From Squalus acanthias (lineage: Eukaryota): a stretch of DNA of 64,000 nucleotides. The stretch lies in contig CM059432.1 in the NCBI GenBank assembly GCA_030390025.1, positions 45,758,001-45,822,000 of the forward strand, given 5' to 3'. Shown one piece after another: positions 1 through 47,894 of the stretch; within the stretch, counting starts at the first letter, position 1; each line of letters begins with the position of its first letter. The notes under the pieces are model-generated. The model ran no database searches. It saw nothing but the letters and a program-made list of their open reading frames with translations, and was not told the origin of the DNA. Position numbers and translations under genes: made by a program.

Positions 1-1198
1 CCTTCCCGACCATACTCTTGCACATCTTTACTCACACCAACTTGCCTTGCACTTCCACCCATTCCTCTCTATCTACATTATCACTTCCCCATCTCACTAG
101 CCACCCCTCACACTCACCCTCATCCTACTGCAAGCATACCAACTAAGAACACACAAGGGTAGGCACTTGGGTGGTTTATCCGATGGTCATGTGAAGTTTC
201 TGGTAATGTGCGGTCAAATATTGAAATCTTTATTTTGAACACTTTGCATTCTTCGACAGTTTTGTGTGCACCTTTGGAAGTGGCTTAGTGAGTTGCAATG
301 AATGGTGAGACATAACATCTCCCCCCCCCCCCACAATGGTGATGAGTGTGAAAGGAATGGCTTGGACATTGCAGGGATGCTTTATGGTGCTGGTGTGGGG
401 TGGTGCCAACCTGCTGCATCATGTGGCAGCCAGGGTGTACAGTGTTAAGTGAAGCAAATCTGGAAATGGTGAGCCCATCACTGGCATCCCGGGCAGCAAT
501 GTGGTCGGGTGCTGATGCCCTGTGTCCTGTGCAGCTTCTGTTGATTGCGGAGGAAGTTGGCGATGTTGGTGTGCCTGGTGATGTTGGTGTTGGGGCTGAT
601 TGTGTTGGGATTCTGAGGACCAACGTGAGATTTTTTCCAAGGGCACCGATGTTGCTGGAATAGATGGCAGCTGAAGTTGAGATGACAGAAGCAATCTGTC
701 AAAGGTGGGAGAGCTTGCTCCAAGGAGGTGACAGTGGATAGAGAGTTTACTCCAAACACTTGCAAACTGCATACAGCTCAAATGTTTCTTCCAAGTCCTG
801 AAGGCTCAAGCTTCTGACATTGGAAAGTGAACAGCTGTGAAATGGTAGCTTTCATACCACTTTTGCAGCTGTCACCTATTCACAGCAATGGGAAGACATA
901 GAGAACCCGACCTACTTACCTGATGTGATCTCCGAATGAAGTGAACCCTGTTAAAATGTGGTAAAATAGAAAAAGGCTGACAAAATAGTAGTAAACAAGC
1001 ACTTAACAAACAGTTAAGTATCTTAAATCCTCCCCCGCCGCTTGGTGTCGGGTCTGTTCTGAAATCGCAGACCCGACACTCTGGAAACTTACATGGAGGT
1101 GGGTTCGCAGCGGGTTCCCAACCCGCTGTCAATCACTTCGATTTTGATATCGGACCCGCCTCCAAACCCGCACTCTGAGCGCCGGAAAAATTCTGCCC
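1..1198 (-). mobile_element. Degenerate PIF/Harbinger-type element, right part (left end outside window)
   Basis: Minus-strand peptide APDHIAARDASDGLTISRFA resembles the transposase C-terminus at 45675-45896 (APPAVHIATRDALIIARFS). It ends in TIR-like AAAATTCTGCCC. Confidence 0.55.
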
Positions 1199-1904
1199 TT
1201 TAACTCTGTTTCTCTCTCCACAGATGCTGCCTGATCTGCTGAGCGTTTCCAGCATCTTCTGTTTTTATTTCAGTACTGTGCTTCCTTGGTGCTAGTGTAA
1301 GTATGAAGCCCCAGATTGGCAACAGCGCTACTATTCCGAAACCAAAGCAAACTACTCGATGATCATTAAGGTCACTTTTTTATTGCTGATTTACAAACCT
1401 GAGGTTTTTGTGTATATTTCAGGTTCTATTTTTAGTGTTAAGAATCGGGGGAATTGGAAACCCAGAAATCCAGGTAAATTCAGAGAAAATCTGCTTTTAT
1501 TTGGAACATTTGAATGGAGTTGATGGCTCTATCGAAGCAATCCAAAAGAGTTCCAGCAATGGCCCAGATAATTACCCATCAAGCAGACAATACTACCACA
1601 TGCGCCACATTTGAAGGAGAGAATTACAATGAGGTAGTGCAAAAGATTCAGAGGAGGTAACAGATTTTTAATTTATTGTATAATTTTAAAAAACGTTCAA
1701 GGACAGACAGAACTGTGGGCAAGGCACAGATGACATCTTTTAGGCAGAGTTTTTATTTCCTTTCACGTTTTATGTACTTTCGATGCATACACAGTATACG
1801 CTTTTCTCCATCTTTAAAACTTTAAATGGGAATGTGCAGGCAGGAAGGAAATCATAAAAGAATCGGATTGTTTTCTCCACGTTGAAGTTTAAAGACATTT
1901 TGTA

Positions 1905-5710: not shown

Positions 5711-6472
5711 GGCCCAGATATTAAACAGTGAGTGTTCACGCGGGGGTAAGGCTTCCCCGCGATATCTCACTCCGCGCCTACCTTTTTCCTCCGGGCCCAC
5801 ACGAACTTTAGTTTCAAGGCCAGTCCCACATGCAGCTGTGCAGTGCTTCTGTGACCCAGAGACGCAATTAGTTCGTGCGAGCTCTGGAATCACGTGATTC
5901 AGTTAGAGCCAATGGCAGCACACCATCTTTCATTCATAGTTTTAACAGCAAGGGCTGTCAAAGCTATGAATCCTACACACCCCCAAAAGAACAGCTAAAC
6001 CTCAATTAAATTAAAAAAAAAAGCCATCACATTAATAAAATAAGTATAGTTAAATAAATTAACCACTTTAAACAAAAAATTAAATTTTTGAAAAAATTTA
6101 AAATCTTTTTAAAAGTTATAAAAGTAAACTTACCTTTCTTTAAAGTCTCTAAAAAAGATAAACCTGTTGAAAAAAATTTAAAATACTTAATTAACTACTT
6201 ACCTTGTTAAAAGAGGGTCTTACGCCTCCTTTCTTTATGTGTAAAATCTTCCATGCTTACCTGCGCGTTCATAGCTGCAAAAATAACTAAGTGCACTGCG
6301 TGCGCGCAGCCTGTAGCGCGCACGCGGTTCACTTAGGAACCGCCCCCTTTTGAATTCACGAAGTGCCAGTTTCCCGCGCATGCGCAGTGCATGCAGGAAA
6401 CTGGCAATTGGAGACCTAAAACGCGAGAGTACACAGTGCGTACTCTCGCGTATTAGGTCTAATTTTCGGGCC
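5711..6472. mobile_element. Non-autonomous Harbinger-type MITE, 760-bp family copy 1
   Basis: Imperfect 12-bp TIRs GGCCCAGATATT / AATTTTCGGGCC; 3-bp TSD ATT; four related copies in the window. Confidence 0.88.
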
Positions 6473-6694
6473 ATTAGTTTTGCAGTCACTGTTGTTGGGT
6501 AGGCAAATGTGGCAGCCACTTTGCACATGACAGGATTCCACAAACAATAATGGGATGAATGATTTATGTTAGTCAAGGAGGAATGTTGGCTAGGACACTG
6601 GACACGCAGCCTGCTCTTATAGTACTATGGATCTTTAATGTCCACCTGAACAGGCAGATGGTGACTCAGTTTTAACATCTCATGCAAACATAAG

Positions 6695-7422
6695 GGCCCA
6701 GAAATTAAACACTGAGCGTTCCTGCGGGGGTAAGGCTTCCCCGCGATATCTCACTGCGCGCCTACCTTTTCCCTCCTGGCCCACACGAACTTTAGTTTCA
6801 AGGCTGCAGCTGTGCAGTGCTTGCGTGACTCACAGATGCAGTTAGTTCGTGCGAGCTCTGGGATCACGTGATTCAGTTAGAGCCAATGGCAGCACACCAT
6901 CTTTCATTCATAGTTTTGACAGGAGAACTGTCAAAGCTATGAATACAACTTACCCCCAAAAGAACAGCTAAACCTCAATTAAATTTAAAAAAAACCATCA
7001 CATTAATAAAATAAGTATAGTTAAATAAATTAACCACTTTAAAGAAAAATTTAAATTTTTGAAAAAATTTAAAATCTTTTTAAAAGTTATAAAAATAAAC
7101 TTACCTTTCTTTAAAGTCTCCATAAAAGATAAACCTGTTGAAAAAAATTTAAAATACTTAATTAACTACTTACCTTGTTAAAAGAGGGTCTTACGCCTCC
7201 TTTCTTTATGTGTAAAATCTTCCATGCTTACCTGCGCGTTCAAAGCACTAAGTGCACTGCGTGCGCGCAGCCTGTAGCGCGCACGCGGTTCACTTAGGAA
7301 CCGCCCCCTTTTGAGTTCACGAAGTGCCGGTTTCCCGCGCATGCGCAAAACCGGCAATTGCAGACCTAAAACGCGAGAGTACACAGTGCGTACTCTCGCG
7401 TATTAGGTCTAATTTTCGGGCC
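6695..7422. mobile_element. 760-bp MITE family copy 2
   Basis: TIRs GGCCCAGAAATT / AATTTTCGGGCC; TSD AAG. Confidence 0.88.
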
Positions 7423-11736: not shown

Positions 11737-12458
11737 GGGGGAAAAATTGAGTTGCGCCTCCTCTGGAGCGCTAACTTCGCCGGGGCACTACTTTTAGCAC
11801 CCCGAAAAAATTAGCGCCTCCGCGGCTGAAATTCACCGGTAGCACCCCAAGAGGGAAGCGGGGTGCTACTGGAAGTGCCCCGCCTCCCTCTTGGGGCGCT
11901 GCGAGTGAATATCGCGGCGCTACGTGCTGCAGCGCCACGCTCTGCAGCACGTCGCACCTCGGTATTGCAGGCTTTTCTTCCCTTCTTAAAGTGGAGGGGC
12001 CTAGCGCAGCGCGACCCGGGGCCCAGCTGGGCTACCAGGGATCGGAGTGCCGGCAAAAGGACCCGGCACTCAAGAGAAGTGCCGGGCTTACAGAGCGCAG
12101 CCGGCACTCCGCGGGGGGGCTGCAGAGGAGGCCAGGGACGGCAACGGGGGCAGGTGCTGGCAGGTGGCCAGCAACAAAAATGGCCGCTTGGCACCTCCCC
12201 TTTAATTTGCGCCGCCCCGGCCGCAGGTAAGCCCCCCTGACCCCGTCGGACATAGCGTAAGTCAGGGGGCGCTACCAAAGATCGTGACCGGGCGCGAGCG
12301 GGCGCTGCGCACGGCGATGACATCCTCGCTGGCGGCGCTAACGGTTACCGCCGCCGCTAACCTCCCGCTGAATTTCGCGGGAGGCATTGGCAGCGCCGCG
12401 CCCAGGCGCTAGTTGCTTTACGCTAACGGGAGGTGCAAAGCAACCGAATTTTTAGGCC
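11737..12458. mobile_element. GC-rich Harbinger-type MITE
   Basis: TIRs GGGGGAAAAATT / AATTTTTAGGCC; TSD TTA; subterminal repeated (G)CGCTAAC motifs; ends related to 44445-45337 and 52134-55868. Confidence 0.82.
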
Positions 12459-13330
12459 TTACTTTTTAACTTGGCATAACTTGAATAAATACACAAACTT
12501 AAATTTATGTGCAACATTATCTAGAAAAGTCTGCTTTTTAAATTCTCTATGGAGCTCAAAGTTATTTCAGGAACAGCGTGATACAGTCTGACAACTGTCC
12601 AAGATTTAGAAGGATGTCTTTTAATGCTCAATGTACCTCCACTATCTTATGCAGGTAATAATATCAGCAGAACTTAATTATTTTTGTATAAACACCAATT
12701 TCCCTACCTCGAGTTGTCCCTCTAGACTGTCCCACTGAAATGCCTCGTGTAACCCAGCGAAGGTCCATATTAAATACAAACAGGTTGCTACTTCAGATTG
12801 TCCAAAGAGCCATGGAAACTTAGAAACCACGCTGCCAGTTGGAATTAATAAAATATACTTTTTGCTCTTTAAAGTGAAGTCTGAAAAAATGCCAGTTAAC
12901 TCTTACTGGAGGTGCATCATACCAACTGCTCATTGTATCCATCTTTACATAAAGAAAATCCTAAGCCCAAAATACTTATCACAATAACCTTAGACCCAAC
13001 TTCAAATCAGTCGACTCTACACACTCTGAATGTAGACACACATGCTCTACGCTACAGATGTAGCAAACTATTGAATGAAATAAAGATAGATCCTCAATAG
13101 TTAGCTAGGAGTGACTGGAAATTAGTAATATTCAGAGTTTCGGATGATATGTTCACATGGATGAGACATGGCATCTTACACAAATCACAATCTTGAAATT
13201 ATTAAGAGATATATTCGCTGATTACCTATTCATATTGCAGTGGTGTATGCATGACAACACACACACTGAAGGATTAAGAGCGTGGGCAAATTCACTTCAT
13301 ATTTCAAATAAAATTGCTATTGAATTCTGT

Positions 13331-13792: not shown

Positions 13793-14036
13793 TTTGAATT
13801 GCTGATTCACAGTTGTACAAGATCCTCCTTTTCTAAACTTAAGAATTCTTGCAATTCTTTAAATAGCCAACTCGACACAGAGACAAAAAAGTACTCATAA
13901 TAGGTCTACACAAGTACTCTCAAATTGCGAGTAATTTGCTGTGAAGCAGGTGCAGTGTATAATGAAACTGGGATATATATAAACATGCAGCATCTTCTGC
14001 CCTCTCCCATGCACGATCAATGCCATAAAACCATAC

Positions 14037-14230
14037 CCTTCCCCCATTGGAGAGTCGAACTGTAGGCACTTGACCGCCACTGTCATTCTCCAGTCGCTGT
14101 GCTGCGCTCTGAACACCACGCCATAGCCTCCTCGGCTGATGTAATGCAGGTCCACTAGCTTCTGGTAAGGAACCACGTCCAAGATGGATGAGATAGTCGA
14201 GAAACTGCTCCCCCGCGAATACTCCATCAT
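14037..14230 (-). CDS. RIPK2: Receptor-interacting serine/threonine kinase 2-like, coding exon 1 (kinase subdomains I-II)
   Basis: Translation MMEYSRGSSFSTISSILDVVPYQKLVDLHYISRGGYGVVFRAQHSDWRMTVAVKCLQFDSPMGE resembles the RIPK2 N-terminus ([37 protein letters not shown]). It ends in a phase-2 donor GG|GTATGG at 14037/14036, where RIPK2 exon 1 ends. Exon 2 was not recognised in 1-14036. Confidence 0.88.
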
Positions 14231-14620
14231 TTTAGAAACGCACACAGATCTGTTTCTCCCTCACTTCAGTCCGTGCCTCCAGCGTTTGCTCATCGCTTGA
14301 GGACGGGTCAGTTCCATGGGACAAAACACATTTTCACAAGCTAACGCCCCTCCAACATAACACAGCGGACGAGTTTGCACGGCCCTTGGAGTCTTGAGGA
14401 CACTTTCGTCTTCGTTTTAGGTCGAATGTTATCGCCACTGTTGTGAAAGGAAATTCACCAGCGAAGGAGCTACGCGTCTTTGACCACTTTGTTACAGGAA
14501 TTCCCCAAACTCAAGACTCTTCCGCCTTTCAGGATCAGTCACGACGTAGCCTTCAGCGTACCAGAAACCACGCCTTTTACGGGAAACCAAACAATATCTG
14601 GCTTGTGGCGCTTTCACGCA
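14231..14620 (-). promoter_or_regulatory. Probable RIPK2 5'UTR/proximal promoter with kappaB-like sites
   Basis: Locally CpG-richer, non-repetitive sequence directly upstream of the ATG. It contains GGAATTCCCC (14497-14506), GGAAATTCACC (14449-14459) and an IRF-like GACGAAAGTG (minus strand, ~14401-14410). Confidence 0.5.
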
Positions 14621-17219: not shown

Positions 17220-17539
17220 AGTGAAGAGATGCATATAGGCACAGCATATATAGTCAGAGAACACTGCCAGATGATTACAGTTAATGTTTCCAACTGCCCT
17301 TTATCACACCTCGGCAGAGAGATAATCACGGCAATCAAAGGTGTGGATGGTGTCCAAACAGGTCAGTCAGGAAAACATTACATCAAAGACAATGTGGCAG
17401 ATGCTGGGGTCTGTATGGAAAACAAAAACTTTTTTTGCAGGAAATCACAGCAGGTCCGGCCGCATCTGTGTAGAGAGAACAAGCCAACGACGACTCGAGT
17501 CTGGATGACTCTACGTCAGGTGCGATTACATGTAGCGTG

Positions 17540-19075: not shown

Positions 19076-19343
19076 CCCACCTGACGTAGAGTCATCCAGA
19101 CTCGAGTCGTCGTTGGCTTGTTCTCTCTACACAGATGCGGCCGGACCTGCTGTGATTTCCAGCAAAAAAAGTTTTTTGTTTTCCATACAGACTCCAGCAT
19201 CTGCCACATTTGACCCCTTGTGACCCCACCTCATTGTCTTTGATGTAATGTCTTCCTGACTGACCTGTTTGGACACCATCCACACCTTTGATTGCCGTGA
19301 TTATCTCTCTGCCGAGGTGTGATAAAGGGCAGTTGGAAACAAT

Positions 19344-20109
19344 GGCCCAGAAATTGGAGTTCGATGGTTGCCGCGGGGGTAAGGATCCCCCGCGATATCG
19401 CACTCCGCGCCTACCTTTATGGTTTTGGCCCACATGAACTTCTGGTCCTGGGCCTCTCCCTGGTGCCGGCGCGCAGTGTGTGCGTGTCCCAGAGGCGCAG
19501 TTAGTTTGATGCGACCTCTGGGATCACGTGTGCCAGTTAGAGCCAATGGCAGCACACCATCTTGCATTCATAGTTTTGACAGCAAGTGCTGTCAAAACTA
19601 TGAATACAACAAGCCCCCAAAAGAACAGCTAAACCTCAATTAATTTTTTTTAAAAAGCCATCACATTAATAAAATAACTATAGTTAAATAAATTAACCAC
19701 TTTAAACAAAAATTTAAATTTTTGAAAAAATTTTAATTCTTTTTAAAAGTTATAAAAATAAACTTACCTTTCTTTAAATTCTCTAAAAAAGATAAACCTG
19801 TTGAAAAAAATTTAAAATAATACTTAATTAACTACTTACCTTGTTAAAAGGGGGTCTTACGCCTGCTTTCTTTATGTGTAAAATCTTAAACACTTACCTG
19901 CGAGTTCAAACCTGAAAAAAAAACTAAGTGCGCTGCGTGCGCACAACCTGTAGCGTGCACGCGGTTCACTTAGGAACCGCCCCCTTTGCAATACCCGAAG
20001 TGCCGGTTTCCCGCGCATGCGCAGTACATGCAGAAAACTGGCACTTCGGGACCTAATACGCAAGAGTACACAGTGCGTACTCTCCCGCATTAGGTCTAAT
20101 TTTCGGGCC
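19344..20109. mobile_element. 760-bp MITE family copy 3, inserted in the Penelope pseudo-LTR
   Basis: Same TIRs; flanks AAT/ATT. The empty site GAAAC-ATT-AACTG is visible in the other Penelope arm (~17277-17290, minus strand). Confidence 0.9.
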
Positions 20110-20175
20110 ATTAACTGTAATCATCTGGCAGTGTTCTCTGACTATATATGCTGTGCCTATATGCATCTCTTCACT

Positions 20176-20212
20176 TCACCTGACGAAGGAGCAGCGCTCC
20201 GAAAGCTTGTGA
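20176..20212 (+). ncRNA. Minimal type I hammerhead ribozyme in the Penelope pseudo-LTR
   Basis: UCAC-CUGACGA-A-GGAGC-AGC-GCUCC-GAAA-GC-UU-GUGA: catalytic core, stem II, palindromic stem III and stem I UCAC/GUGA. Confidence 0.78.
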
Positions 20213-20640
20213 TTTCAAATAAAGCTGTTGGACTATAACCTATTTAAATGTGGCAGAGTGTGTTTCTGGTTGGCCTTAAAGGAAGCTGTCGGTTTTCTGG
20301 GAGGAGAATGCAGGTGCAAGTTTTTTTTGTGGTGGTTTTGAGACAATAGTCTTTAAGAACACATTTTTCTCTGTTTACTAGTCCAAACCCACCTCAAAAT
20401 GGGTGGTAATGTAGAGAAGAAGCCAGACCAAAAATTCGGCTGTAGAACATTTGTCAACATAAATCCTACATCAGAACTGGAAGGAATTACAGATGAACAG
20501 CATTTGAAAAGAAACAGAAACAACGAAAGGGAGAGGGGAAAAATCTCTTGATATTATTTCAGACATCTAAACGCCTCCTGTTTTACTTTTTATCATTTCA
20601 CAGGTTATTCTACTTCCTCTGTTGTATGAGAGAAAGCATG

Positions 20641-21425
20641 GGGGGTGATTTTGCCAATGGGGACCTGATGGAGGCGGGACTGCTGCTTGCCGGGTTTTAG
20701 TCCCGCCTCCATTGACGTCCAGCCAACCCACGCTACTTTCCCTTGATTGACCTTGTTAAGCCCGCCCAGCGGGCTTAGCCGGCCAATTAAGGGAAAGCCG
20801 GTGACAGAGAGCGTCAACGTATGACGTTTCATCTGTCAAAATTTTTTAACAGATTAATTGCCATCGTTTGACAGCTTTGAGAAGCTGTCAAACACTGACA
20901 TTCTCTGTTGTTTGGTGAGTCCTTGTATTCAAGACTCACCAAACCTATTTCCTGAGCAGAAATCAGATGGCTGTTGCATCGGAGAATGCAGCAGCCATTC
21001 TGTCATCTCTGCCGTGGAGATGCCGGAGCCTCCGGATGCCCAACGATTGAAGCCTGCAGGAAGAAACAAAAGTAAATAAACTTTTTCTAAGACTTTTCAC
21101 TCACCTCACATATTTACCTCTCCACACTTGCACCCATCACTCACCTCCACAGCGCACTTTTCGAACCCTCTGACCCCCGCAGACCCACTGCTCGCCTCGC
21201 TGACCCTGGCGGGGTTTTCTGATGTCGGGAAGCCCGCACTTGTGTGGCTGTAATCCCCTTCCTGCCTCGAGGAGACAGGTCCCAGCGCGAGTCGGGGACC
21301 CGCCTCCTGGGAAGATGGCACGGAGGCGGGTTGGGGGCGGGTTCAGTACCCACTCCAGATTCTGCCATTTTCCCAGTAGTCCCGCCTCTATACCCGCCTC
21401 CCCAGGGCTGGCAAAATCGTCCCCC
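20641..21425. mobile_element. Harbinger-type MITE, second family, with multiple internal hairpins
   Basis: TIRs GGGGGTGATTTTGCC / GGCAAAATCGTCCCCC; TSD ATG. Confidence 0.85.
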
Positions 21426-21884
21426 ATGTGTATGTTTTTGTGTGTGTGTTTTTGACTCCTTTCTCTTCTGTTCCTTTTTAAATGCTACTCATGTAAAGTT
21501 TTACAGTTCTGTTGAAGGGTTGCACCTGAAATATTAACTTGCCTGTTCTCTCCACAGATGTTACCTGACCTACTGAGTGCTTCCAGCATTTCCTGTTTAT
21601 GTTCCAAAATATTAATAGTTTCTTGACAGTAGGGCAGTGTAGCATCTTCTGAAAGAACCATCCCTCATCATCTTCAGACAGGAGCTGACATCTGCACAAC
21701 TAAAGTATTGGCATTTGGAGAGGCATGAAAATAGATGTCACTTCAGGAGTGATGATTAATCTCGTGGTGTTGACATTTCTGCCAGTTGCTGATAGTAATG
21801 GATGTGTGACACTTTATGCAGAAGCTACACTGAGGCTCAATACAGCGGGTTTCACCAACATATATATTGAGTGCAGGGAAGGGT

Positions 21885-34514: not shown

Positions 34515-35145
34515 ATCCAAAATTCTGCTACCCAAATCCTATCCCACGCCAAGTCCCACTCACCCATCATCCCTGTCCCACCACAAACTCCATTCCCTCG
34601 TCCTCAATTCCATCCCCTCTCTAGCCACTGTCTCAAGCTGAACCAGGCTGTTCGTAATCTATTTGACCCTGGGCTGAGCTTCCAACCCATATCTTCTCTA
34701 TCACAAAGACCACCTACTTTCACCTATGTAACATCGCCCGTCTCTGCCCTTGCCTCAGCTTATCTGCTGCTGAAGCCCTTAAACATGCTTTTACATATTA
34801 CATAGAATTTACAGCACAGAAACAAGCTATTCATCCCATCAGGTCTATGCTGGTGTTTATGCTCCACCTGAACCTCCTCCTACCTGACTTCATCTCATCC
34901 TATCAACGCATCATGTTACCTCCAGAGTTGACTATTCCAATGCTCTCCTAGCTGGCTACCCAGAAGTCTGCATTCTTCCAACTCTAACCTATTGTGCATC
35001 CCCCCTCCATTCACCCCAGAAATTGGTGGCTACGCCTTCAGCTGCCCAGAGCCTGTGCCCTGGAATTTCCTCCTTCAATCTCTTGACCTCTTTCTCCTCC
35101 TTAAAACCCACCTCTTTAATCAAGCTTTTGGTCACCCCTCCTAAT
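34515..35145 (+). mobile_element. L2-type LINE 3' fragments (continues at 40153-40260)
   Basis: GGTCACCCCTCCTAAT|ATCTCCTTATTTGGCTCGG joins across the MITE and ends with a GCACTATATAAA tail. Confidence 0.7.
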
Positions 35146-35452
35146 GGCCCAGAAATTAGGCTCCCTGGCTTCCCGCGGGTGCAAGGATCCCGCGCGCACC
35201 TACCTACCGTGCCTGCCATTGATCTGGGGCCACGGGGACTTCAGCTCCTGGGCCTCCTGCAGCTGCCAGCGCGCAGTGCTTGTGTATCCCAGGGGCGTAG
35301 TTAGTGCGATGCGTCCCCTGGGATCACGTGGGCCATGGACAGCCAATGGCAGCATAGAAACATAGAAACATAGCAGATAGGAGCAGGAGTAGGCCATTCG
35401 GCCCCTCTAGCCTTCTCCGCCATTCAATGCGATCATGGCTGATCATCCAAAA

Positions 35453-38314
35453 TCAGAACCCTGTTCCTGCTTTCTCCCCATATCCCTTGATCCCTTTAGC
35501 CTTAAGAAATATATCCAACTCCTTCTTGAATATATTTAATGAATTGGCCTCTACTGCCTTCTGTGGTAGAGAATTCCACAGATTCACCACTCTCTGGGTG
35601 AATAAATTCCTCCTAATTTCTGTCCTAAATGGCTTACCCCTTATCCTTAGACAGTGACCCCTGGTTCTGGACTCCCCCGCCATCGGGAACATCCTTCCCG
35701 CATCTAGTCTGTCCAGTCCTTTCAGAATTTTATAAGTTTCAATGAGATCCCCTCTCATTCTTCTAAACTCCAGCGAGTATAAGCCCAATCGACCCAATCT
35801 CTCCTCATACGTCATTCCTGCCATCCCAGGTATCAGCCTGGTGAATCTTCGCTGAACTCCTTCCATGGCAAGAACATCCTTCCTCAGATAAGGCGACCAA
35901 AACTGCACACAATACTCAAGATGTGGTCTCACCAAGGCCCTGTACAACTGCAGCAAGACATCCTTGTTCCTGTACTCAAACCCTCTCGCTACGCAGGCCA
36001 ACATACCATTTGCCTTCTTAACCGCCTGCTGCACCTGCATGCTTACCTTCAGCGACTGGTGCACAAGGACACCCAGGTCTCGTTGCACTTCCCCTTCTCC
36101 CAATCTATTGCCATTCAGATAATAATCTGCCTTCCTGTTTTTGACACCAAAGTGGATACCCTCGCATTTATCCACGTTATATTGCATCTGCCATGCTTCT
36201 GCCCAATCACCCAACCTGTCCAAATCATCTTGGAGTTTCTTGGCATCCTCCTCACAGCACACACGCCCACCCAGCTTTGTGTCGTCTGCAAACTTGGAGA
36301 TATTACATCTAGTTCCCTTGTCTAGATCATTAATATATATTGTGAATAGCTGGGGTGCAAGGACCGATCCCTGCGGTACCCCACTAGTCACTGCCTGCCA
36401 CTCGGAAAAAGACCCGTTTATTCCAACTCTTTGCTTTCTGTCTGCCAACCAGTTCTCTATCCAAGTCAATACCTTGCCCCCAATCCCATGTGCCTTAATT
36501 TTACACGCTAACCTCTTATGCGGGACCTTATCAAAAGCCTTTTGAAAGTCCAAATACACCACATCCACTGGTTCTCCCTTATCTATTTTACCAGTTACAT
36601 CCTCAAAAAATTCCAGTAGATTAGTCAAGCACGATTTACCTTTTGTAAATCCATGTTGACTTTGTCCGATGCTGTCACTGTTTTCCAAGTGCTCTGCTAT
36701 TACATCTTTTATGATGGACTCTAGCATTTTCCCCACTACCGATGTCAGGCTTACCGGTCTGTAATTCCCCGTTTTCTCTCTACCACCTTTTTTGAATAGT
36801 GGGGTAACATTAGCTACCCTCCAATCCATGGGTACAGTTCCAGATTCCATCGAATGTTGGAAGATGATCAGCAATGCATCTACTATTTCTAGGGCCACTT
36901 CCTTAAGTACCCTAGGATGTAGATTATCAGGCCCTGGGGATTTATCAGCCTTCAATCCCGCCAATTTCCCTAACACCATTTCCCTACAAATACTGATTTC
37001 ATTCAGTTCCTCCCTTTCATCAGACCCTATGTTCCCCGACATCTCTGGGAGGTTATTTGTGTCCTCCTTTGTGAAGACAGAACCAAAATATGTATTGAAT
37101 TGGTCTGCCATTTCTTTGTTCCCCATTATAAGTTCCCCTGATTCTGACTGCAAGGGACCTACGCTTGACTTCACCAATCTTTTTCTCTTCACATATCTAT
37201 AAAAGCTTTTACAGTCAGTTTTTATGTTCCCTGAAAGCTTCCTCTCATATTCTATTTTCCCCTTCTTAATTACTCCCTTTGTCCTCCTTTGTTGAATCCT
37301 AAACTGCTCCCAATCCTTAGGTTTACTGCTTTTTCTGGCCAATTTATATGTCCTCTCCTTGGATCTTATGCTATCCCTAATTTCCCTTGTTAGCCACGGT
37401 GAAGTCACCTTTTTTGTTTTATTCTTATGCCAAACTGGGATGAACAAATTCTGTAGTTCATCCATGCAGTCTTTGAATGTTTGCCATTGCCTATCCACCA
37501 TCAACCCTTTGAGTGACATTCCCCAATCAATCCTACCCAACTCGCACCTCATACCATCGTAGTTTCCTTTATTTAAATTCAGGACCCTAGTCTCTGAGTC
37601 AACTACTTCACTCTCCATCTTAATGAAGAATTCTGTCATATTATGATCGCTCCGACCCAAGGGGCCTCGCACAACAAGATTGCTAATGAATCCTTTCTCA
37701 TTACATAATACCCAGTCTAAGATGACCTGATCTCCGGTTGGTTCCTCGACATATTGGTCCAGGAAACCATCCCGTATACACTCCAGGAATTCCTCCTCCA
37801 CAGTATTGTTACTAATTTGGTTAGCCCAATCTATATGTAGATTAAAGTCACCCATGATGACTGCTGTGCCCTTATTGCACGCTTCTTTAATTTCCCTTTT
37901 AATGCCATCCCCAACCTCCGCATTACTGTTTGGAGGTCTATATACCACTCCCACTAACGTTTTCTGCCCCTTGGTATTTTTCAGTTCTACCCATACAGAT
38001 TCCACATCATCAGAGCTAATATCCTTCCTTACAATTGTGTTAATCCCCTCTTTAACCAGCAATGCTACGCCACCTCCCTTTCCTTTTTGCCTATCTTTCC
38101 TGAATATTGAATACCCCTGGATGTTGAGTTCCCAGCCTTGGCCACCCTGGAGCCATGTTTTCGTAATCCCAATCAAATCATATTCGTTTACCTCTATTTG
38201 CGCAGCTAATTCATCCACCTTATTCCGAATGCTCCTTGCATTAAGACACAAAGCCTTCAGGCTTGTTTTTTTAACGCTCTTAGACCTATTAGAATTATTA
38301 TTTACTGTGGCCAT
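35453..38314 (-). CDS. CR1 ORF2: AP-like endonuclease plus reverse transcriptase (953 aa, open)
   Basis: APE motifs NARS, GDFN, SDHN; RT motifs NYRPVSL, DFQKAFD, PQGSVL, FADD. Confidence 0.96.
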   Translation of the reverse strand: MATVNNNSNRSKSVKKTSLKALCLNARSIRNKVDELAAQIEVNEYDLIGITKTWLQGGQGWELNIQGYSIFRKDRQKGKGGGVALLVKEGINTIVRKDISSDDVESVWVELKNTKGQKTLVGVVYRPPNSNAEVGDGIKREIKEACNKGTAVIMGDFNLHIDWANQISNNTVEEEFLECIRDGFLDQYVEEPTGDQVILDWVLCNEKGFISNLVVRGPLGRSDHNMTEFFIKMESEVVDSETRVLNLNKGNYDGMRCELGRIDWGMSLKGLMVDRQWQTFKDCMDELQNLFIPVWHKNKTKKVTSPWLTREIRDSIRSKERTYKLARKSSKPKDWEQFRIQQRRTKGVIKKGKIEYERKLSGNIKTDCKSFYRYVKRKRLVKSSVGPLQSESGELIMGNKEMADQFNTYFGSVFTKEDTNNLPEMSGNIGSDEREELNEISICREMVLGKLAGLKADKSPGPDNLHPRVLKEVALEIVDALLIIFQHSMESGTVPMDWRVANVTPLFKKGGREKTGNYRPVSLTSVVGKMLESIIKDVIAEHLENSDSIGQSQHGFTKGKSCLTNLLEFFEDVTGKIDKGEPVDVVYLDFQKAFDKVPHKRLACKIKAHGIGGKVLTWIENWLADRKQRVGINGSFSEWQAVTSGVPQGSVLAPQLFTIYINDLDKGTRCNISKFADDTKLGGRVCCEEDAKKLQDDLDRLGDWAEAWQMQYNVDKCEGIHFGVKNRKADYYLNGNRLGEGEVQRDLGVLVHQSLKVSMQVQQAVKKANGMLACVARGFEYRNKDVLLQLYRALVRPHLEYCVQFWSPYLRKDVLAMEGVQRRFTRLIPGMAGMTYEERLGRLGLYSLEFRRMRGDLIETYKILKGLDRLDAGRMFPMAGESRTRGHCLRIRGKPFRTEIRRNLFTQRVVNLWNSLPQKAVEANSLNIFKKELDIFLKAKGIKGYGEKAGTGF

Positions 38315-38441
38315 GTTTGATTTAAACCGTTGATTTCTCTAACTGCCACTTTTGTTTTTCTCCTTCCTATCTTTTGCTTTTATCCTTTTTACCCTTTCCT
38401 CTGTCTCCCTGCTCAGGTTCCCAACCCCCTGTCATTTTAGT

Positions 38442-39386
38442 TTAAACCCTCCCCCAGAGCACTAGCAAACACTCCCCCAGGACATCGGTCCCAGCCCTGC
38501 CCAGGTGCAAACCGTCCAGTTTGTACTGGTCCCACCTCCCCCAGAACCTGTTCCAATGTCCCAGGAATTTGAATCCCTCCCCCTTGCACCATTCCTCTAG
38601 CCACGTATTCATCTGAAATATCCTTCTATTTCTACTCTGACTAGCACGTGGCACTGGTAGCAATCCGGAGATTACTACCTTTGAGGTCCTATTTTTTAAT
38701 TTACCTCCTAACTCCCTATATTCAGCTTTTAGAACCTCATCCCCTTTTTTACCTATATCGTTGGTACCTATATGCACCACGACAACTGGCTGTTCACCCT
38801 CCCCTTCCAAAATGTTCCGCAGCTGCTCTGAGACATCCTTGACCCTTGCACCAGGGAGGCAACACACCATGCTGGAGTCTCGTTTGCAGCCACAGAAACG
38901 CCTATCTATTCCCCTTACAATAGAATCCCCTATCACTATAGCTCTACCCCTCTTTTTCCTCCCGTCCTGTGCAGCAGAGCCACCCCTGGTGCCAGGAAGT
39001 TGGCTGCTGCTGCCTTCCTCTGATAAGCCATCTCCCCCAACAGTATTCAAAGTGGTATATCTGTTTGAGAGGGGGATGTCCACAGGGGACTCCTGCACTA
39101 CCTGCCTGCGCCTACTACTCTGTCTGTTGGTCACCCATTCCCTTTCTGCCTGTGCATCCTTTGCCTGCGGTGTGACCAACTGCTCAAACGTGATATCCAC
39201 GACGTCCTCAGCATCGTGAATGGTCCAGTATGTATCCAATCGCAGCTCCAGCACCGTAATGTGGTCTGCCAGTAGCTGTTGCTGGATACACTTCCTGCAC
39301 ACATGGTTGTCAGTGGCACAGGAAGTGTCCCTGAGCTCCCACATAGCGCAGGAGGAGCATACCACGGGGCCGAGCTCTCCTGCCAT
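38442..39386 (-). CDS. CR1 ORF1: CxxC zinc finger/coiled coil plus SGNH esterase-like domain
   Basis: CSSC...CRKC, then IVIGDSIVRG, CLPGA, HIGTNDI, DGLHL. Probable 1-nt frameshift in the last ~12 codons. Confidence 0.92.
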   Translation of the reverse strand: MAGELGPVVCSSCAMWELRDTSCATDNHVCRKCIQQQLLADHITVLELRLDTYWTIHDAEDVVDITFEQLVTPQAKDAQAEREWVTNRQSSRRRQVVQESPVDIPLSNRYTTLNTVGGDGLSEEGSSSQLPGTRGGSAAQDGRKKRGRAIVIGDSIVRGIDRRFCGCKRDSSMVCCLPGARVKDVSEQLRNILEGEGEQPVVVVHIGTNDIGKKGDEVLKAEYRELGGKLKNRTSKVVISGLLPVPRASQSRNRRIFQMNTWLEEWCKGEGFKFLGHWNRFWGRWDQYKLDGLHLGRAGTDVLGECLLVLWGRV

Positions 39387-41579
39387 GACTTACCCTTTAA
39401 TTAATTCAAATTAAATTAAATCAAATCAATCTCACCAATTACACTACAGTTAAATGATATACTTAAGGGCCCTGGTTTACCAACAGTCCCCGCTAAACCA
39501 CAGAGAGCTTAGAAACTATAAACCACAGAGTTTAAGTTTAAAAAGAGAGAAATACTCACCAACCAATCACTTACCTGCTTTCTGGACCACCTTCACAGAC
39601 CATCTTTCATTCATAGATTTGACAGGAAGACCTGTCAAATCTATGAATTGAAATCGGCTTCAAAACAACACCTAAACTTCAAATACATTTTTTTTAAAAC
39701 CATCACATTTTTAAAATAACTATAAGTTAAATAAATTAACTACTTTAAACAAAAATTTAAATTTTTGAAAAAATTAAAATACTTTTTAACATTGCTAACA
39801 ATAAACTTACCTTTCTTTAAGGTATCTAAAAAAGATAAACCTGTTGAAAATTTTTTTAAATTGTAATTAATTAACCACTTACCTTGTTAAAAACGGGTCT
39901 TGCGCCTCCTTTTTAAAAGCGCAGCTTCTTCAATACTTACCTTCCTGGAGAAACCTGAAAAAAAACCTAAGTTCACTGCGTGCGTGCAGCCTCTCCCGTG
40001 CACGCGGTTCACCTCTGAACCCCTCCCTTCACGAGACCGGAAGTTCCGGTTTCCCGCGCATGCGCAGTGCATGCAGGAAATCGGCACTTCAGGAGGCCTT
40101 ACGGGTGAGTGCACAATGCGTACTCACCCGGCAAGTACCGAATTTTTGGCCCAATATCTCCTTATTTGGCTCGGTGTCTTTTTTTTATTATTCTTCCATG
40201 AAGCACTTTGAAACATTTTTCTACATTAAAAGCACTATATAAAGTTAGGTTGTTCTTGTTGTAGTGTAGTCAGGAGTTAGTGTGGCAGGTTAACATTATT
40301 AATATAACTTGTAAATGAGTGTTTACCATTTTGTTCTTTAGTGAGGAACTACTGCGAAGGGCACAACAATAATAAACTTAAAATTGCCCCGAGAACATTC
40401 ACTAATATAAAATTATATTTTATTCCCCCCCCCACAATTTTGTGAGTTATTTTTCTTTGAAATTTTTCAGGACTCTGTACGTCAGCCGCTGAACAGATGA
40501 GTACACAAGCTGTTCCTGTGTCTCTGTTAATTCTGTTCCGTCATTGGCCATTTGGGGCTGCAGAAATGTGACACAGATTAACTGGTCCTCCAATTTCCCA
40601 TCTCTCCCTGTGAGGAATTGTCTCCCTTCTACACAATGTTATTCCAGATGGTCTGGCTGAGATTGGCTACTTGCCATAGCGGGAGGGGTGAAGAAATTAC
40701 AGCCGTAAACGTCATCCAGCTCTTTTTGACACAGAATTTTAATGCTCTGACACCATGCCACTAAAATTCTTTTTGTCACTTACCAGCTTTACAGCATGAG
40801 TCTTTCTACATGACCACTGATGTGCCAACAGAAATATCAAAATTTACACTCACAACAGGTAAACTACTTCACGTGCAATCACATGTGATCATTACAGAAA
40901 GAAACTTCACTAATAGCTTCAGGCAGATGGGAAAAGTGACAATTATCTTTAATGGCATGGTAACGTAGGAAGGCTGCAGCATGTAATAGCCTGGAGATAG
41001 TCATCTGAAGCGATGATTCAAGCTGTGAATGCTCGCAGCAGGCCCTGGGCCGTTTACTGGCAACTGCCTGACAGCTTTCAGCGAAACAGCATAAGCTCAG
41101 CAATGGCACTGATGCTGATCTGGCAAAATCAAATGCAACTCAAGCTGGTTTTCTATTAGTCTGAATGTCAGTCAAAGTTCAATGAGACTCAGCAGGCTTC
41201 AGTCAGTTACTTTATTTAAGAAGGTGAATCTGGGACTCGCTGGCTCGCTGTGGCAGCTTGGGATGCGTGAGATAGGCATTTTACATGGACGGTCTGAAGA
41301 AGATTTGACCTTTAAATTCCTCAAGCATGTTCAGGCTAAATATCAGCTCAATCTGAATATCAATTTAGACACTAATTAAAGACTCATATCATACACAGAG
41401 GACAGTGCATCATCAGCAGCAGCAAATTTATAAGTGAAAGAAACCTTACAATTTACTAAAAGCAGTATGATAAACAATTTTGTCTTATTTATGTAATGAT
41501 ATGCATGCTGAAGTCTCTGTGACATTGATCACAACAGCCTGAGCCATTTGTTTCCTTGATGCTACTGGGCCACAGTACA

Positions 41580-41997: not shown

Positions 41998-41999
41998 TA

Positions 42000-44242
42000 G
42001 CCTAGAAATTCGTGACCGCTACAAAAGCTGCCGGTGCCACCGCGGCTGGGTGATAACGGCCGCTAAAAATGGTGGCATTGACAGGACCGAAAAATTGGCG
42101 CTGGGATCTAATTAACATTAGCCCAGTGCTTAACTCATAGTGCAACGCCGTCCTGGTGGTGTTAGTCCTGGCAGCAGGCCCCAGTGTAGCGTGGCCAAAG
42201 CATAGTTGCAGCTCGAACATCCTCTCTGAAAGCGAGACTGTGAATTCAGAAAGAATTGTCAGTTTCTTAAAGGGGCAATGCCTTCTGAGATGAAAAAAAA
42301 ATGCAGTTTTTAGCCCTTACAGCTCAACTGCCTTCTGAAAAAAAATTAACACTAAAAAGAATTCCCAAATGGGAGTCTTCAGCTCTTAAAGCTGAATTCC
42401 CTTCCAGACCTAAAAAAATGGGAAAAGTGCTTCAGCGCTAACACAAATGGCTCAGCAAACCAGGAAAAGGGCACCCAGGGTCTCGCATGCAGCACTCTAG
42501 CTTTGTGCAGGGGGTCAACACTGCAAGAGAGGTCCTCTACCCACAGAGGCCAGGAGGCTCATGAAAGAATGCTGTGGGACCACATTACTGAGGCCATCGC
42601 TGCCAGCAGTGTTGCCCCCATGACCTGGCTCCAGTGCCCAAAGAAGCTTCATGACCTCAGACTACTGGTCAAGGTCAGTGAATGCATCTTCAAAAGCTGT
42701 CTCCTACCAACTGCACCACTAGCCTCACAAACTTCTCAATGCACGACTCCCCCACCCAATCACTCACCTACCAACAATCTGTACCAATCACGAGGCACAG
42801 CTCACATATATCACAATATCCTAGCTTCACCTCACCACCTTGGAGGAGACGATGCTGGATATTCTTGCAGGGGTATGGCTGAACCCTTTGCCAGCGGCGG
42901 GGCTAAAAGCATACAAGATGCTGGTATCCTCAAACATTATCCTCTTTCTCGCATGCACCTCTTGCTTTCCTGCCCGCCCCTCACCACAACTCCACCCTTG
43001 TGCCTTCCTCATTTCACACACTCAAGAAATGCAGCCTGCCCAGCCAGTGATTGACCAAGACGAGGGAGAGAAGAGTGAAGTAGAAGAAGAAGAAGAAGAA
43101 ACGCCGTCACTCGATTTCACACTCCCAGCCACCAGCTCCTCAAGGTCGATTAGCAAGGCCATTTGCAGTGTTCCCCATTGAAAGTCAGCAGCCTTCCACC
43201 AGCCATGCTGCAGCCACTGGGGTAGCACAGCATGACATCAGTAGGATAGGCAAAGGCACACACAAGACAGTCACTAAGAGAATGCATAAGGGTGTTGAGT
43301 TGATTTATTGATGTCATATTGGATGGATAGATGTACAACATTGGATTGGAAAGTTTGCTTTGTGGTAACTTGTATTTCAGCATTGTGGCCAAGAGGATGA
43401 TGTGATGGTCAGTAACAGAGAGAACTTAAGGTGTGGGACAAATGTTGAAAGGGGAGTTGGGGTTGTGATCACTGGTACCACGGGCGGATGATTCCATCCC
43501 GGATATCCTGGCCAGAATGGGACTATCGGGGTTGCATCCTTCCTTCTGCTTCCTCCTCTTCTGCTCCTTCCTCTTCTGCGTCTTCCTCTTCTGTATCTTC
43601 CTCTTCCCTCTGTGAGCAGTTGCTGTAAAACTGAAATAAAAGTATAAAATGTTGTAAATACTCAGCAGGTCAGGCAACATCTCGACCTGAGACGTAAACT
43701 CTGTTTCTCTCTCCACAGATGCTGCCTAACCTGTTGAGTATTTCCAGCATTTTCTTTCTTCGCAGAGGCCTTCCTTTACCATCCAAGGCCTTGTAAGCAT
43801 CCAGCAGCACTTCCTGCATACTTAAAAACTTTTAATATGTATTGCAGCAAGCCATTACTTCAATAAAATAAAAAAGATCCAGTCCAAAAGCTTAAATGCA
43901 AACTTATCTGAAAGATGTGTGTGTCCCTTTAAGAGGTGCTGGCAGCGTCTCTGTCAGTCTACTGAACAGTGGATATTCATGGCAAGCTTTGGACCCAGCG
44001 CTGAACTCGACGCTAAGGTTGAAGTCTGCTGAGGTGATGTTAAGTCAGCGTTGCTTGTCAACTGATGTCACCCTCTCTTCATTTATGTTTCCAGGGCCAG
44101 TGCTGCTATTGGCAGCACTAAGGCCCTCACCAAAATGGCGGCCACCGAGTCCCGCACCAGAGAAGGGCGCTAGAGTGGCAGCCACCATTTTTTGACCGGA
44201 TCATGGCGGTAACTCGTAGTGGTAAGTGGCCAATTTCTAGCC
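42000..44242. mobile_element. Harbinger element A, internally deleted
   Basis: TIRs GCCTAGAAATT / AATTTCTAGCC. Myb-like remnant from ATG 42447 (MAQQTRKRAPR...W..C.KKLHDL..LVK|GT). Transposase reduced to its acidic tail (~43470-43610). Penelope pseudo-LTR piece at ~43625-43760. Confidence 0.8.
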
Positions 44243-44444
44243 TCGTGTCCTCGAGTCTGCCCCTGCACAGGTGCAGGTGGAACAGTCTTTGGCGGGGCCC
44301 TCACAGGCTCCAAAATCCAGAGGATGTCGGCCAGGAGCATCTCAGCAGTCAGTGCTGGGATCTGAGCAGCCTGCCTCTACCTCTGCTGAAGCCACAGGGG
44401 TTGCACCACGTAGAAGTGCTTGGAAAAGTAACAGTAAAGATTTG

Positions 44445-45337
44445 GGGGTAAAAATTCAGTTGGTTGCACCTCCCGTTAGCGCCTTAAGAGGGCGCTAATG
44501 GGGCGCAAAGCCGCTAACGCCCGGGCGCAGCGATGTTTGCGCCGCTCGAGAACTTAACTAGAGATTGTGCGGCGGCGCTAAAACTTACCGCTGCGACCAC
44601 CTGCGCGCGCAGATTGTGACGTCATTCCATGGTGCAACGCCCTTGTGGCGCCCCGGAGCGGAAATTGAGTGGCGCCCCCTGCCTTACCGCCTGGCGCATC
44701 CAACGACCAGAAGACTGGAACGCTATCAATCGCTGTGGGGCTGGGGGGGGCGCTATTTAAAGGGGGCCTCTTCCTGTCTTTTATTGTTGGTGGCATTTTT
44801 GACCTACGCATTCTGAGAGAGAGAGGGAGAGACTTCTGGAGAGATTCAACGTTGTGTGAAGGAGTTTTGGGTACTGAGCAGCACTTTGCAGGTTCATTTT
44901 GATTTGCCATTCCTTGTATCGATTTAGCAGAGACTGTGGGAGCTGCACTCTGAGCTCTTTGCCTGGTACTCTCCATTGTTCTTTCCAGCACATTTGATGT
45001 GCAAGTCTCTCCAGGCCGAGATTCAAGGCTGCAATGAACAGGATGTGGATGGAAAGCAAGATTAACCATCCCCTTTAAGAACTGGCTCGTGCCATTGTGT
45101 GTGTGTTCCATTGCTGACTGACATTACATGAGCTTCGCCAGCGCTCTGAGTTAACGCCTCACTCCTTGGCCTTTGCGCCTTAAGACAGGTGTGCAGCGCC
45201 TGCTTTAGCACTCCACTCACCTCCCGGGGCGGTAAAAGTGAAGTTTCCAGTCAGTGCCGATAATTAGCGCCAGGCGCTAATATTTGCGTCCAGACGATAT
45301 TTGCGCCCCAAATGGGGCGCGACCTAATTTCTACCCC
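44445..45337. mobile_element. GC-rich Harbinger MITE nested in element B
   Basis: TIRs GGGGTAAAAATT / AATTTCTACCCC; TSD TTG. Confidence 0.88.
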
Positions 45338-46159
45338 TTGTAGTTGCATAAGGGTATGTACATGGGTGTGTTACACATTGTTAGAATAGTAAGATTCGGT
45401 TTTATATGTGAGCCACATAAATATTATTTTGCACCACTTTCCCGTCTTGCCCATTCTTGGTTGCTGGTTGGCAAGTGGCCTTTTCAGTTGTGGGATGATG
45501 AATGGGAAGACCTGAATTGACGACGACCAATGGGAGGATGTAAAATGGATGCTTGGTTGTTTGCAGGACTGCTTTGTGTTTGTGGCATTGGTGGGGTGGA
45601 GGCGGTGGGGGGGTGGGGGGAGGGTGCAAAAATGGCGTTTGCATGTGGTTGTTAGATGGGTGCACTGATGGAACCTAACTGAACCTCGCAATAATAAGGG
45701 CATCCCGGGTAGCAATGTGCACCGCTGGTGGTGCACTGCTCACATCACCATCCGTCTCCTCTAACCCCTCCTCCTCATCTTCCTCCTCCTCCTCGGAATC
45801 ATTCAAGAAAGCTCTGTGCTCTTCACCCTGTTGCTCCTGCAGGTCCAAACCTCGCTGCTTTGCAATGTTGTGCAGAGCGCAACACACCACGACCATTCTG
45901 GAGACCCTGGCTGGTGAGTACTAAAGGGTGCCTCCAGATCTGTCAAGGCACCTGAAGCGCATCTTCAGCATGCCAATGGCTTGTTCAATGACACATCTGG
46001 TGGTCATATGGCATTCATTGTATCGCTCCTGTGCCTCATTCCTCGGATTTCTGAGAGGTGTCGTCAGCCACGTTTAAGTGGGTATCCCTTGTCTCTGAGC
46101 AGCCACCCAGTAACTCTACTTCAAGGTGTGAAGAAATCAGGGAGGATGGACTGCCACAG

Positions 46160-47277
46160 TGTGAAGGAATAAGCCATATAACCTATTCAGAAAAATACAC
46201 CATTCTATGAAAGAATTCTGGCCTTATTAAAACATGACAAACTGGGTCTGGAAATCTAGAAACCTAACTGAAAAAGCTGTGATAGCATTCTGGCTATAGA
46301 GATAAGATAGTTGTTGACAGTGAATCAATAACCTTATTGAAACAGAAGGTTAAAGGCTCCCGACAGTCTGAATCTTTGGGAACAAATAATGGTTCACCCT
46401 GTACAAGGTGTTCTAATTTACACTTCGTAAAGAAGCACAAACATCTGCCTTCGTAAAAATGACATCAAGTACAAAACGCACCTGCTGTTACACCGTTTTT
46501 TATGGTAAACTTAGAACACCTAGAGGAGAGACATGATTCTGTAATGCTACCAGCTGAGGTGACTAAGAATTGCAGAAGTCAGCAGAAAAATGACTAGAGA
46601 TAATTAGCTTACATCAGCAGAAAACCTTAAAGGAAATACCACTGGAAAAGGGTATAAATATTGAACTTTCAAATGGGATAGTAGACTCGCTGTAAAGGGG
46701 CAAAGCGATTCTCAGGCATCAGAGGCGGCTCTGTAAGTCTCCAACTCTTTGTACCTTGGGGATCAAAGGTACTGTATTTGATTTTGGTGGATATCCTGTA
46801 CAAAACTAAGAACTGTAAAAGATTTGAGAGTAAGGATCTCTGATAATAAGATTGTAAAGCTTTCTCTTTTTGGAACTGTTAATGTTGCGATTGACTCACC
46901 AACTGTAAACTACATGTTGGTTCTTTAATAAATCTATATATTTTTAGAATTGTCTCACATAAGACTTCTGTATCAAACTCGCAAACTCAATTTCTGTACA
47001 CTCTGGTGAGGAGTTGCAGAATTCTGGGGGAGTTTTCCAGACCCTCATAATATCCGGAACGTTACAGTCTAGCTAAACTTATTAAAAGTGCTATCTGGAG
47101 GACGATAACATTTTCAGGTTGTTCCTTTCCTTTAGGAAGAGATAGTCCGGACCTTTAGATTCAATTAAGCGTCTTTAGGATTCGGCTACCTCAAACTTTA
47201 GTTGAAAGTGAATGTCTGAGGAATACGCCTGATCTGGGGTAGCCCTAAAGGGGCTAGGGCTAGTAATTATCCCTTCA
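46160..47277 (+). mobile_element. Solo LTR (1118 bp) inserted in the transposase
   Basis: TGTGAAGG...CCTTCA ends; 4-bp TSD ACAG; TATAAATA at ~46654; AATAAA at ~46927. Confidence 0.88.
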
Positions 47278-47894
47278 ACAGGACGAAGGCATCGTGGCAA
47301 CTGCCCGGGAATCTTACGCACACCTGCATAAAGATCTTTTTGTGGTTGCACACCAGCTGCACATTGATGGAGTGGAAGCACTTGCGGTTGACGAACACTC
47401 CTGGGTGTTCTATGGGTGCTTGAATTGCCACATGCGTGCAGTCGATGATGCCCTGCACCTGTGGGAAGCCAGCCAGAGTCACAAACCCGAGCGCCCACTC
47501 ATTCTGATTGGCGTCATTGCAGGCAAAGTTGACATAATTGCTGGTCCTGGCAAAGAAGCCATCAGTCACCTATCTTATGCAATTGTGTGCCACCAACTGG
47601 GAGATCCTGCAAATGTCTCCAGATGAGCCCTGGAAGAATGCAAAGGCAAAAAAGTTGAGGGCGGTGGTGACTTTTGACTGTTACCGGTAAAGAATGGCCT
47701 CCAGGTCCAGCTGGCAGCAGGTCTTTTTCCAGAAGGCTGCAAATGTCTGCCACCACCTGATGCGACACCCTGAGCCTCCTGAGACACTGGTGTTCTGACA
47801 GGTCTGACAGACCCAGTGTGCGGGGTATGGCCTCCAGCGAGCTGCACCTCTCTGCTGATCCATTCTGTCCTGTGGAGCTACAGGTCTGTGAGCA

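Follow-up and report, generated by a model that had tools for sequence, protein, structure and literature searches.

The 785-bp element at 20641-21425 of the window (the whole 64-kb stretch of DNA analyzed here) is a Harbinger-type MITE whose central dyad and splice signals are real, family-wide, and beyond chance, and which has the same architecture as a 760-bp MITE family in outline only. We hold with about even confidence that these signals are an inherited promoter and intron-containing transposase leader, kept under constraint in amplifying master copies. The element has TIRs and is flanked by ATG at both ends, and its borders comprise the following features:

20638 to 20640, plus strand: left target-site duplication, ATG, from one copy, with no empty site seen
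20641 to 20656, plus strand: left TIR, 90% complementary to the right TIR
20668 to 20712, unstranded: GC-box hairpin and left subterminal repeat, from the inverted-repeat listing
21409 to 21425, plus strand: right TIR, the right border of the MITE
21426 to 21428, plus strand: right target-site duplication, ATG, matching the left one

The duplication could possibly be a 2-bp AT instead, the element then being one base longer. The first 11 nt of the left TIR are identical to the right TIR of a long Harbinger ending near 48652. The TIRs, the short and noncoding sequence (0 of the 65 window ORFs of at least 120 amino acids overlap 20641-21425), and the many dispersed copies place the element among the PIF/Harbinger (PHIS) MITEs, and its link to a two-gene element with Myb-like and DDE genes is an indirect chain that runs from its right end to a deleted Harbinger at 1-1199, then to the element at 45346-48630, and then to DDE_Tnp_4 ORFs. 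As far as the available parts of the sources describe them, the Tourist-like mPing and the zebrafish Harbinger3N_DR resemble it in their TIRs, lack of a long ORF, high copy number, and, if ATG is its true duplication, a duplication length of 3 bp (PMC2836001, PMC4482050, PMC9921582), and PIF/Harbinger MITEs likewise have ends related to two-gene Myb-like and DDE elements. In contrast, ATG (or C|AT|G) fits no PHIS subgroup consensus quoted in the accessible text of PMC4482050, namely, TWA (PIF/Harbinger), CWG (NuwaI), ANT (Pangu), A|AT|T (ISL2EU), and also CTNAG.

The family is very abundant, with 20,776, 46,314, 732, and 542 contigs in all four public runs compared (4 of 21 listed), which come from three organisms. 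Most of these contigs are 80 to 95% alike, and depth drops at both MITE ends in the four runs; contig depth gives no copy number and does not rank the parts of the MITE. In the window, the only other match to the MITE is a distant one at 1014-1195, and an exact-pattern scan for full MITE copies found none in viral contigs and none in metagenome contigs. A piece from run X1 ending at 20644 was considered as an empty site and dropped, its right flank being repeat-masked. The CpG observed/expected ratio is 0.64 in this MITE, about 1.0 in the 760-bp family, and 0.44 in the window, which is vertebrate-like and repeat-rich and contains LINE ORFs, presumably of CR1 type, and several Harbinger-type elements.

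The original prediction described a CCAAT word, a TGACAG dyad, further hairpins, and three minus-strand donors in this element, and all of them were found at the positions given. Together with the features identified here, the interior of the MITE contains the following:

20736 to 20797, unstranded: hairpin with CCAAT (20783) overlapped by ATTAAGGG (20786), an inverted repeat
20798 to 21008, unstranded: cluster of six TGACA/TGTCA words, the densest 211 nt of the window
20804 to 20908, unstranded: outer stem, an inverted repeat of 20804-20820 with 20892-20908, enclosing both dyads
20827 to 20858, unstranded: second dyad, CTGTCAAA..TTTGACAG, tail-to-tail, degenerate in the window copy and complete with the family majority letters
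20867 to 20892, unstranded: dyad TTTGACAG-N10-CTGTCAAA, from a pattern search and shuffles
20910 to 20944, unstranded: hairpin GTTTGGTGAGTC / GACTCACCAAAC, an inverted repeat
20967 to 20998, unstranded: hairpin ATGGCTGTTGCAT / ATGCAGCAGCCAT, an inverted repeat
21054 to 21083, minus strand: acceptor-like site, 17 of 20 pyrimidines plus CAG, by consensus score
21099 to 21147, minus strand: three donor-like sites within 49 nt on a short repeated unit, by motif scan
21237 to 21425, plus strand: GC-rich right end, which shares homology with that of the deleted Harbinger at 1-1199 (z=15.3; nhmmer E=1.4e-10)

The pattern TTTGACAG-N4-14-CTGTCAAA has four matches in the window, in three 760-bp copies and in this MITE, and none in 100 whole-window shuffles. 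In dinucleotide shuffles of the MITE, the TGACAG..CTGTCA dyad appears in 1 of 1,000, five perfect 8-bp hairpins in none of 1,000, and a donor triplet within 60 nt in 1 of 1,000; the dyad, the hairpins, and the triplet thus exceed what shuffled sequence yields, which had been raised as a point that could count against the module. The cluster of TGACA/TGTCA words is matched in 1 of 2,000 shuffles for that word and in 50 of 2,000 for any word, and the family letters add two more such words (20848 and 20861). An unrelated stretch at 21624 contains five TGACA words, the same number as the deleted Harbinger.

The motifs are present at the level of the family. In the 40 of 182 difference rows seen (37 of the 40 lying inside the MITE), from four runs, the majority letters keep or improve them, which within those rows answers the concern that the combination might be absent from the family. 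In the same rows, the octamer arms of the dyad at 20867-20892 are free of family differences, and the positions that change (20877 and 20880) lie between the arms. The second dyad is completed by letters that make up most of the depth (20848 A>G, 96 to 99.6%, in 4 of 4 runs; 20842 T>A, 69 to 97%; 20855 T>G, 94 to 99.6%), the outer stem regains pairs with the family letters at 20811 and 20817, and those at 21377 and 21389 restore the pairing of the left with the right subterminal repeat. The family letter A at 20915 breaks one pair of the hairpin at 20910-20944, for which a partner change may stand among the unseen rows; a loose end in run X13 shows a two-sided change in the same hairpin. Altogether, 23 base pairs were tested with the family letters, with 13 restored, 8 broken, and 2 left unpaired, compensating partner changes possibly standing among the difference rows outside the 40. 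Because the majority letters add a dyad and a perfect donor and restore more pairs than they break, the window copy reads as a decayed version of a better-formed master. In the joints shown (15 of 114, mostly from run X13), 14 skip 32 to 137 nt between the central hairpins (20808-20982), and some joint variants carry TGACGTCA after 20808; these joints could be real deletion variants or hairpin artefacts.

The minus-strand donors are GAG|GTGAGT, GAG|GTAAAT, and GAG|GTGAGT, with 9-mers starting at 21147, 21120, and 21107, and the family letter at 21113 (T>C, 90 to 99.6% of depth) turns the middle one into GAG|GTAAGT. The acceptor-like site, which the original prediction had overlooked, has a CAG that ends at 21054, 51 to 91 nt below the donors, and the family changes at 21071 and 21076 preserve pyrimidines in its tract. 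The minus strand of the MITE therefore presents a GT donor, a pyrimidine tract, and a YAG in order, with predicted introns of 91, 64, or 51 nt. On scores that are simple consensus counts rather than the output of a trained model, a strong donor followed by an acceptor appears in 2 of 1,000 shuffles and in 1 of 81 real tiles, the one being this MITE. No spliced joint across these sites was found among the 15 of 114 joint rows, mostly from one deep run, and unspliced pieces cross the acceptor and the donors (21 in run X16 and 31 in run X17, both presumed to be RNA runs, a label that is a guess, with contigs that carry no strand information). None of the listed runs that contain the family is registered as RNA, which says nothing either way about expression. 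The G-T versus A-C asymmetry of the MITE (19 versus 11) picks no strand. A separate candidate, TTTGACAG itself as a splice acceptor, was dropped, since it occurs in both orientations and falls below the pyrimidine cutoff and since the acceptor of the deleted Harbinger lies at 655.

For comparison with the 760-bp family, one nearby copy is listed here:

19344 to 20109, unstranded: 760-bp MITE copy used as a comparator, with its dyad at 19575-19596 and donors at 19900, 19842, and 19770 (minus strand)

Neither a pairwise z-test nor a profile search in both directions found homology between the two families, in line with the original statement that they do not align by eye, and the 760-bp family has a 3-bp duplication of ATT, as demonstrated by a paralogous empty site. 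The claim of a same architecture held for the order and strand of the motifs and for the position of the dyad, which is 226 versus 231 nt away from the left end and 533 versus 513 nt away from the right end. It did not hold for the spacing of the donors (13 and 27 nt in this MITE versus 72 and 58 nt in the 760-bp family) or for the CCAAT-to-dyad distance (84 versus 32 nt). A 9-bp stem is common to both families, with about 0.008 expected for the pair, and is the only stem shared among ten families tested; the two families contain 18 and 16 stem octamers, with many unrelated hairpins. The number of three donors in both is probably incidental, because the donors of the 760-bp family sit in cassettes and those of this MITE on one repeated unit. 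In the 760-bp family (19762-19925, minus strand), these cassettes have an acceptor-microexon-donor form, with the acceptor at 19912 followed by the donor at 19900 and the acceptors at 19798 and 19783 before the donor at 19770. Its AG|GTAAGT at 19842 immediately follows a stretch of pyrimidines and in this resembles a recursive splice site.

Among the four 760-bp copies, 3 of the 43 columns that make up the donors and the arms of the dyad are variable, versus 78 of 308 nearby (p=0.0035). This signal stems from the most distant copy (20% diverged), for which 1 of 43 motif columns varies versus 63 of 315 (p=0.0014), with 1 of 27 nonpalindromic donor columns changed. In the two close pairs, the constraint is not significant (p=0.29 and 0.12). 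The motifs in this comparison were picked after inspection, and the four copies are related. Two-sided changes flank the fixed core of the dyad (2 of 18 pairs) and are also seen in other stems (6 of 59 predicted pairs). The idea of a shared functional module thus keeps its dyad, the sharing of which is beyond chance, and its donors and stems, which are constrained in the 760-bp copies, and finds no support for its CCAAT. Motifs that we take to be NRF1-like and E-box-like lie at 20013-20024 and 19524-19531 of the 760-bp family. The copy at 19344-20109 is inserted in a GIY-YIG/RT repeat (compare 17255-17315), which we assume to be Penelope-like, and a diverged copy at 35145-40151 is split by a LINE (961-amino-acid ORF, 35453-38338) just after its CCAATGGCAGC motif.

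The origin of these parts is approached through two Harbinger relatives in the window:

1 to 1199, minus strand: internally deleted Harbinger used as a comparator, with donors at 1095 and 922, TGACAG..CTGTCAAA at 683-703, and an acceptor at 655
55507 to 55520, minus strand: TGTCA..TTTGACAG in the transposase leader of the two-gene Harbinger at 52133-55869, about 45 nt below TATTTAAAGG

The deleted Harbinger, with which the MITE shares its right end, is related to the transposase element at 45346-48630 (E=8e-14 over 45346-45742 and 8e-10 over 48019-48630). Its acceptor at 655 precedes a decayed transposase start, its TGACAG..CTGTCAAA hairpin lies 30 to 50 nt above that acceptor, and its donor at 922 is about 280 nt away from its end, versus 281 nt for the outer donor of the MITE. 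The layout is intact in the long element ending near 59665, which has TATTTAAAGG, a donor at 59537, and an acceptor at 59372, with the transposase ATG directly after. On its minus strand, the element at 52133-55869 encodes a DDE_Tnp_4 transposase (E=1.8e-34), its plus strand has an exon of Myb/SANT-like type (E=0.001, a match below the Pfam cutoff), and its two genes point inwards; no donor was found in its transposase leader. TTTGACAG occurs 13 times in the window versus 3.5 expected, a count that includes both dyad arms and four copies of one family, and 12 of the 13 lie inside Harbinger-type elements of four families; this octamer reaches four families in none of 300 shuffles, and some octamer does so in 288 of 300. 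Strong donors in Harbinger ends (6,717 nt) number 10 versus 4.5 expected (p=0.017), and 4 of the 10 Harbinger families tested have none. The dyad and donor triplet are absent from the small elements at 11737-12460, 44446-45338, and 51801-52043. The hairpin at 20967-20998 is weakly like positions 658-701 in the deleted Harbinger, with a score of 32 that one of 3,196 unrelated tiles exceeds, and is at most a weak candidate for the transposase start.

The reading that we favor would connect these observations as follows. The MITE would consist of the two ends of a two-gene PHIS parent whose Myb-like and transposase genes pointed inwards, and its right half would be the promoter and noncoding leader of the transposase gene. 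The minus-strand donors and acceptor would then be the intron signals of that leader, and the TGACA(G) words would derive from the same region. The 760-bp family would have a similar layout because this plan was already present in its own parent or in a distant MITE ancestor of both families. Master copies that retained donors and dyads may have been the ones to amplify, most plausibly because a transcribed, protein-bound interior aids mobilization or escape from silencing. No parent of this MITE is present in the 64-kb window, and a profile search aligned 20641-21236 with nothing in it; because the middle of the MITE aligns with no parent, the descent of its donors and dyads is putative. The original prediction left the choice between convergence and deep conservation open, and convergence is less likely than inheritance because the same octamer is found in the transposase leaders of both the deleted Harbinger and the two-gene Harbinger.

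It seems to us improbable that host TALE proteins (Meis/Prep/TGIF) bind TGACAG and that unrelated MITEs acquired by convergence, or retained, a TALE-binding module for opening or regulating the element. The CCAAT word, which was proposed as part of such a module, is not supported as one: CCAAT appears in 867 of 1,000 dinucleotide shuffles of the MITE, its spacing is not kept, and it overlaps ATTAAGGG, which resembles the TTAAAGG core that precedes Harbinger genes, with an exact TTAAAGG in a loose end from run X17. The DECA decamer has the pattern TGANTGACAG, and neither MITE contains an exact match, the best having one mismatch and lying far from CCAAT. In the DECA-CCAAT composite, as the accessible text describes it, the spacing is 11 bp (10.64898/2026.02.16.706105), a geometry that is absent here, where the CCAAT-to-dyad distances are 84 and 32 nt. 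Monomeric Prep/Meis recognizes HEXA, TGACAG, according to the part of PMC6023610 that was available, and the window copy has five such words in both orientations, with a sixth from the family letters. The attribution to a TALE site therefore stands as a HEXA match and fails for DECA, for the 11-bp spacing, and for a fixed dyad spacer, the spacers being 5, 6, 6, 7, and 10 nt. In TGACAG, CCAAT, and GC boxes, the MITE resembles the TALE HEXA and DECA-CCAAT elements (PMC6023610; 10.64898/2026.02.16.706105), again as far as these are described in the available text. The core of the dyad remains fixed while its flanks and loops change, and the occurrence of one core with different TIRs may suit a host protein better than a family-specific Myb. 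However, the two-sided flank changes speak for symmetry itself, and TALE binding leaves the donors and the acceptor unexplained.

Equally, we give little credence to a neutral origin, in which the hairpins arose by template switching in excision or gap repair, the donors are fossil or duplicated, and the shared 9-mer, like its position, is a coincidence noticed post hoc. Template-switch repair of quasi-palindromes is a familiar process, and several observations suit it: unrelated hairpins abound in both families, two-sided changes occur outside the dyad as well, the joints cluster between hairpins, the donors lie on a repeated unit, and the window copy has drifted. A palindromic interior is also known from the Xenopus tropicalis Harbinger-N12A_XT, a vertebrate Harbinger MITE with transcription factor motifs, some copies of which sit in open chromatin; it differs in its length of 342 bp and in its NRF, GATA, and SNAIL motifs, and no splice signals or cross-family dyad are described for it in the accessible part of PMC12676858. 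However, the shared stem is expected only about 0.008 times, the dyads lie within 5 nt of equal left-end distance, and template switching would neither fix a core nor protect donors across 20% divergence. If the neutral origin holds, the element would be a MITE of the common type that retains a fossil leader.

We consider it very improbable that a spliced, structured noncoding RNA from the right-end promoter, or a plus-strand RNA with U1-like 5' motifs, acts in transposition or host splicing, since the complete donor-acceptor set at 51 to 91 nt, the strong folding of the MITE (z=-10.8), the acceptor-microexon-donor cassettes of the 760-bp family and the deleted Harbinger, and the family pieces in both presumed RNA runs are set against the finding of no spliced joint among the 15 joint rows and of unspliced pieces across the sites, against the absence of a match at the gathering score among 10 weak Rfam 15 matches over 19300-21500, and against predicted introns of which two of three are very short for vertebrates.

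Beyond the inherited leader, an extension that we regard as unlikely is that shark Harbinger MITEs are selected to keep a TTTGACAG dyad about 230 nt inside one end and inward donors, that this module outlasts all other similarity in sequence, and that a shared protein, from a host TALE family or from a transposon, together with U1/splicing-coupled transcription would license their amplification. The success of cut-and-paste MITEs would then depend on element transcription and spliceosome recognition. It is not yet understood what lets certain deletion derivatives multiply into highly abundant MITEs; internal sequence tunes mPing mobility, and in the available part of that study, these effects are not sequence specific, with no shared promoting region found between mPing and mPong (PMC9921582). 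Here, two nonalignable vertebrate families present the same short candidate determinants of MITE abundance. A complete set of splice signals and a dyad shared between nonalignable families distinguish this MITE from PIF/Harbinger MITEs as described in the accessible parts of the sources, and fish Harbingers are expressed, with nothing on leader introns in the available text of PMC9179366. We found no prior description of a dyad-plus-donor module in the literature within reach, which did not include Repbase and most subscription papers. An abundant element with a CpG-rich promoter, strong donors, and TALE-like sites would readily supply raw material from which new first exons and enhancers could arise in shark genomes.

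Ten Harbinger-type copies in the window (1-1199, 5711-7422, 19344-21425, 35145-40151, and 41999-59665) are oriented alike, with donors or transposase on the minus strand; besides this MITE and the deleted element, they comprise four copies of the 760-bp family and four long elements. The MITEs at 11737-12460 and 44446-45338, the orientation of which is not firm, have TTAAAG(G) cores and one donor each, and no TTTGACAG dyad. The first coding exon of a RIPK2-like kinase lies at 13895-14260 on the minus strand (E=1e-11 to PDB RIPK2), and the MITE is about 6.4 kb upstream of it, with its putative leader pointing the same way.
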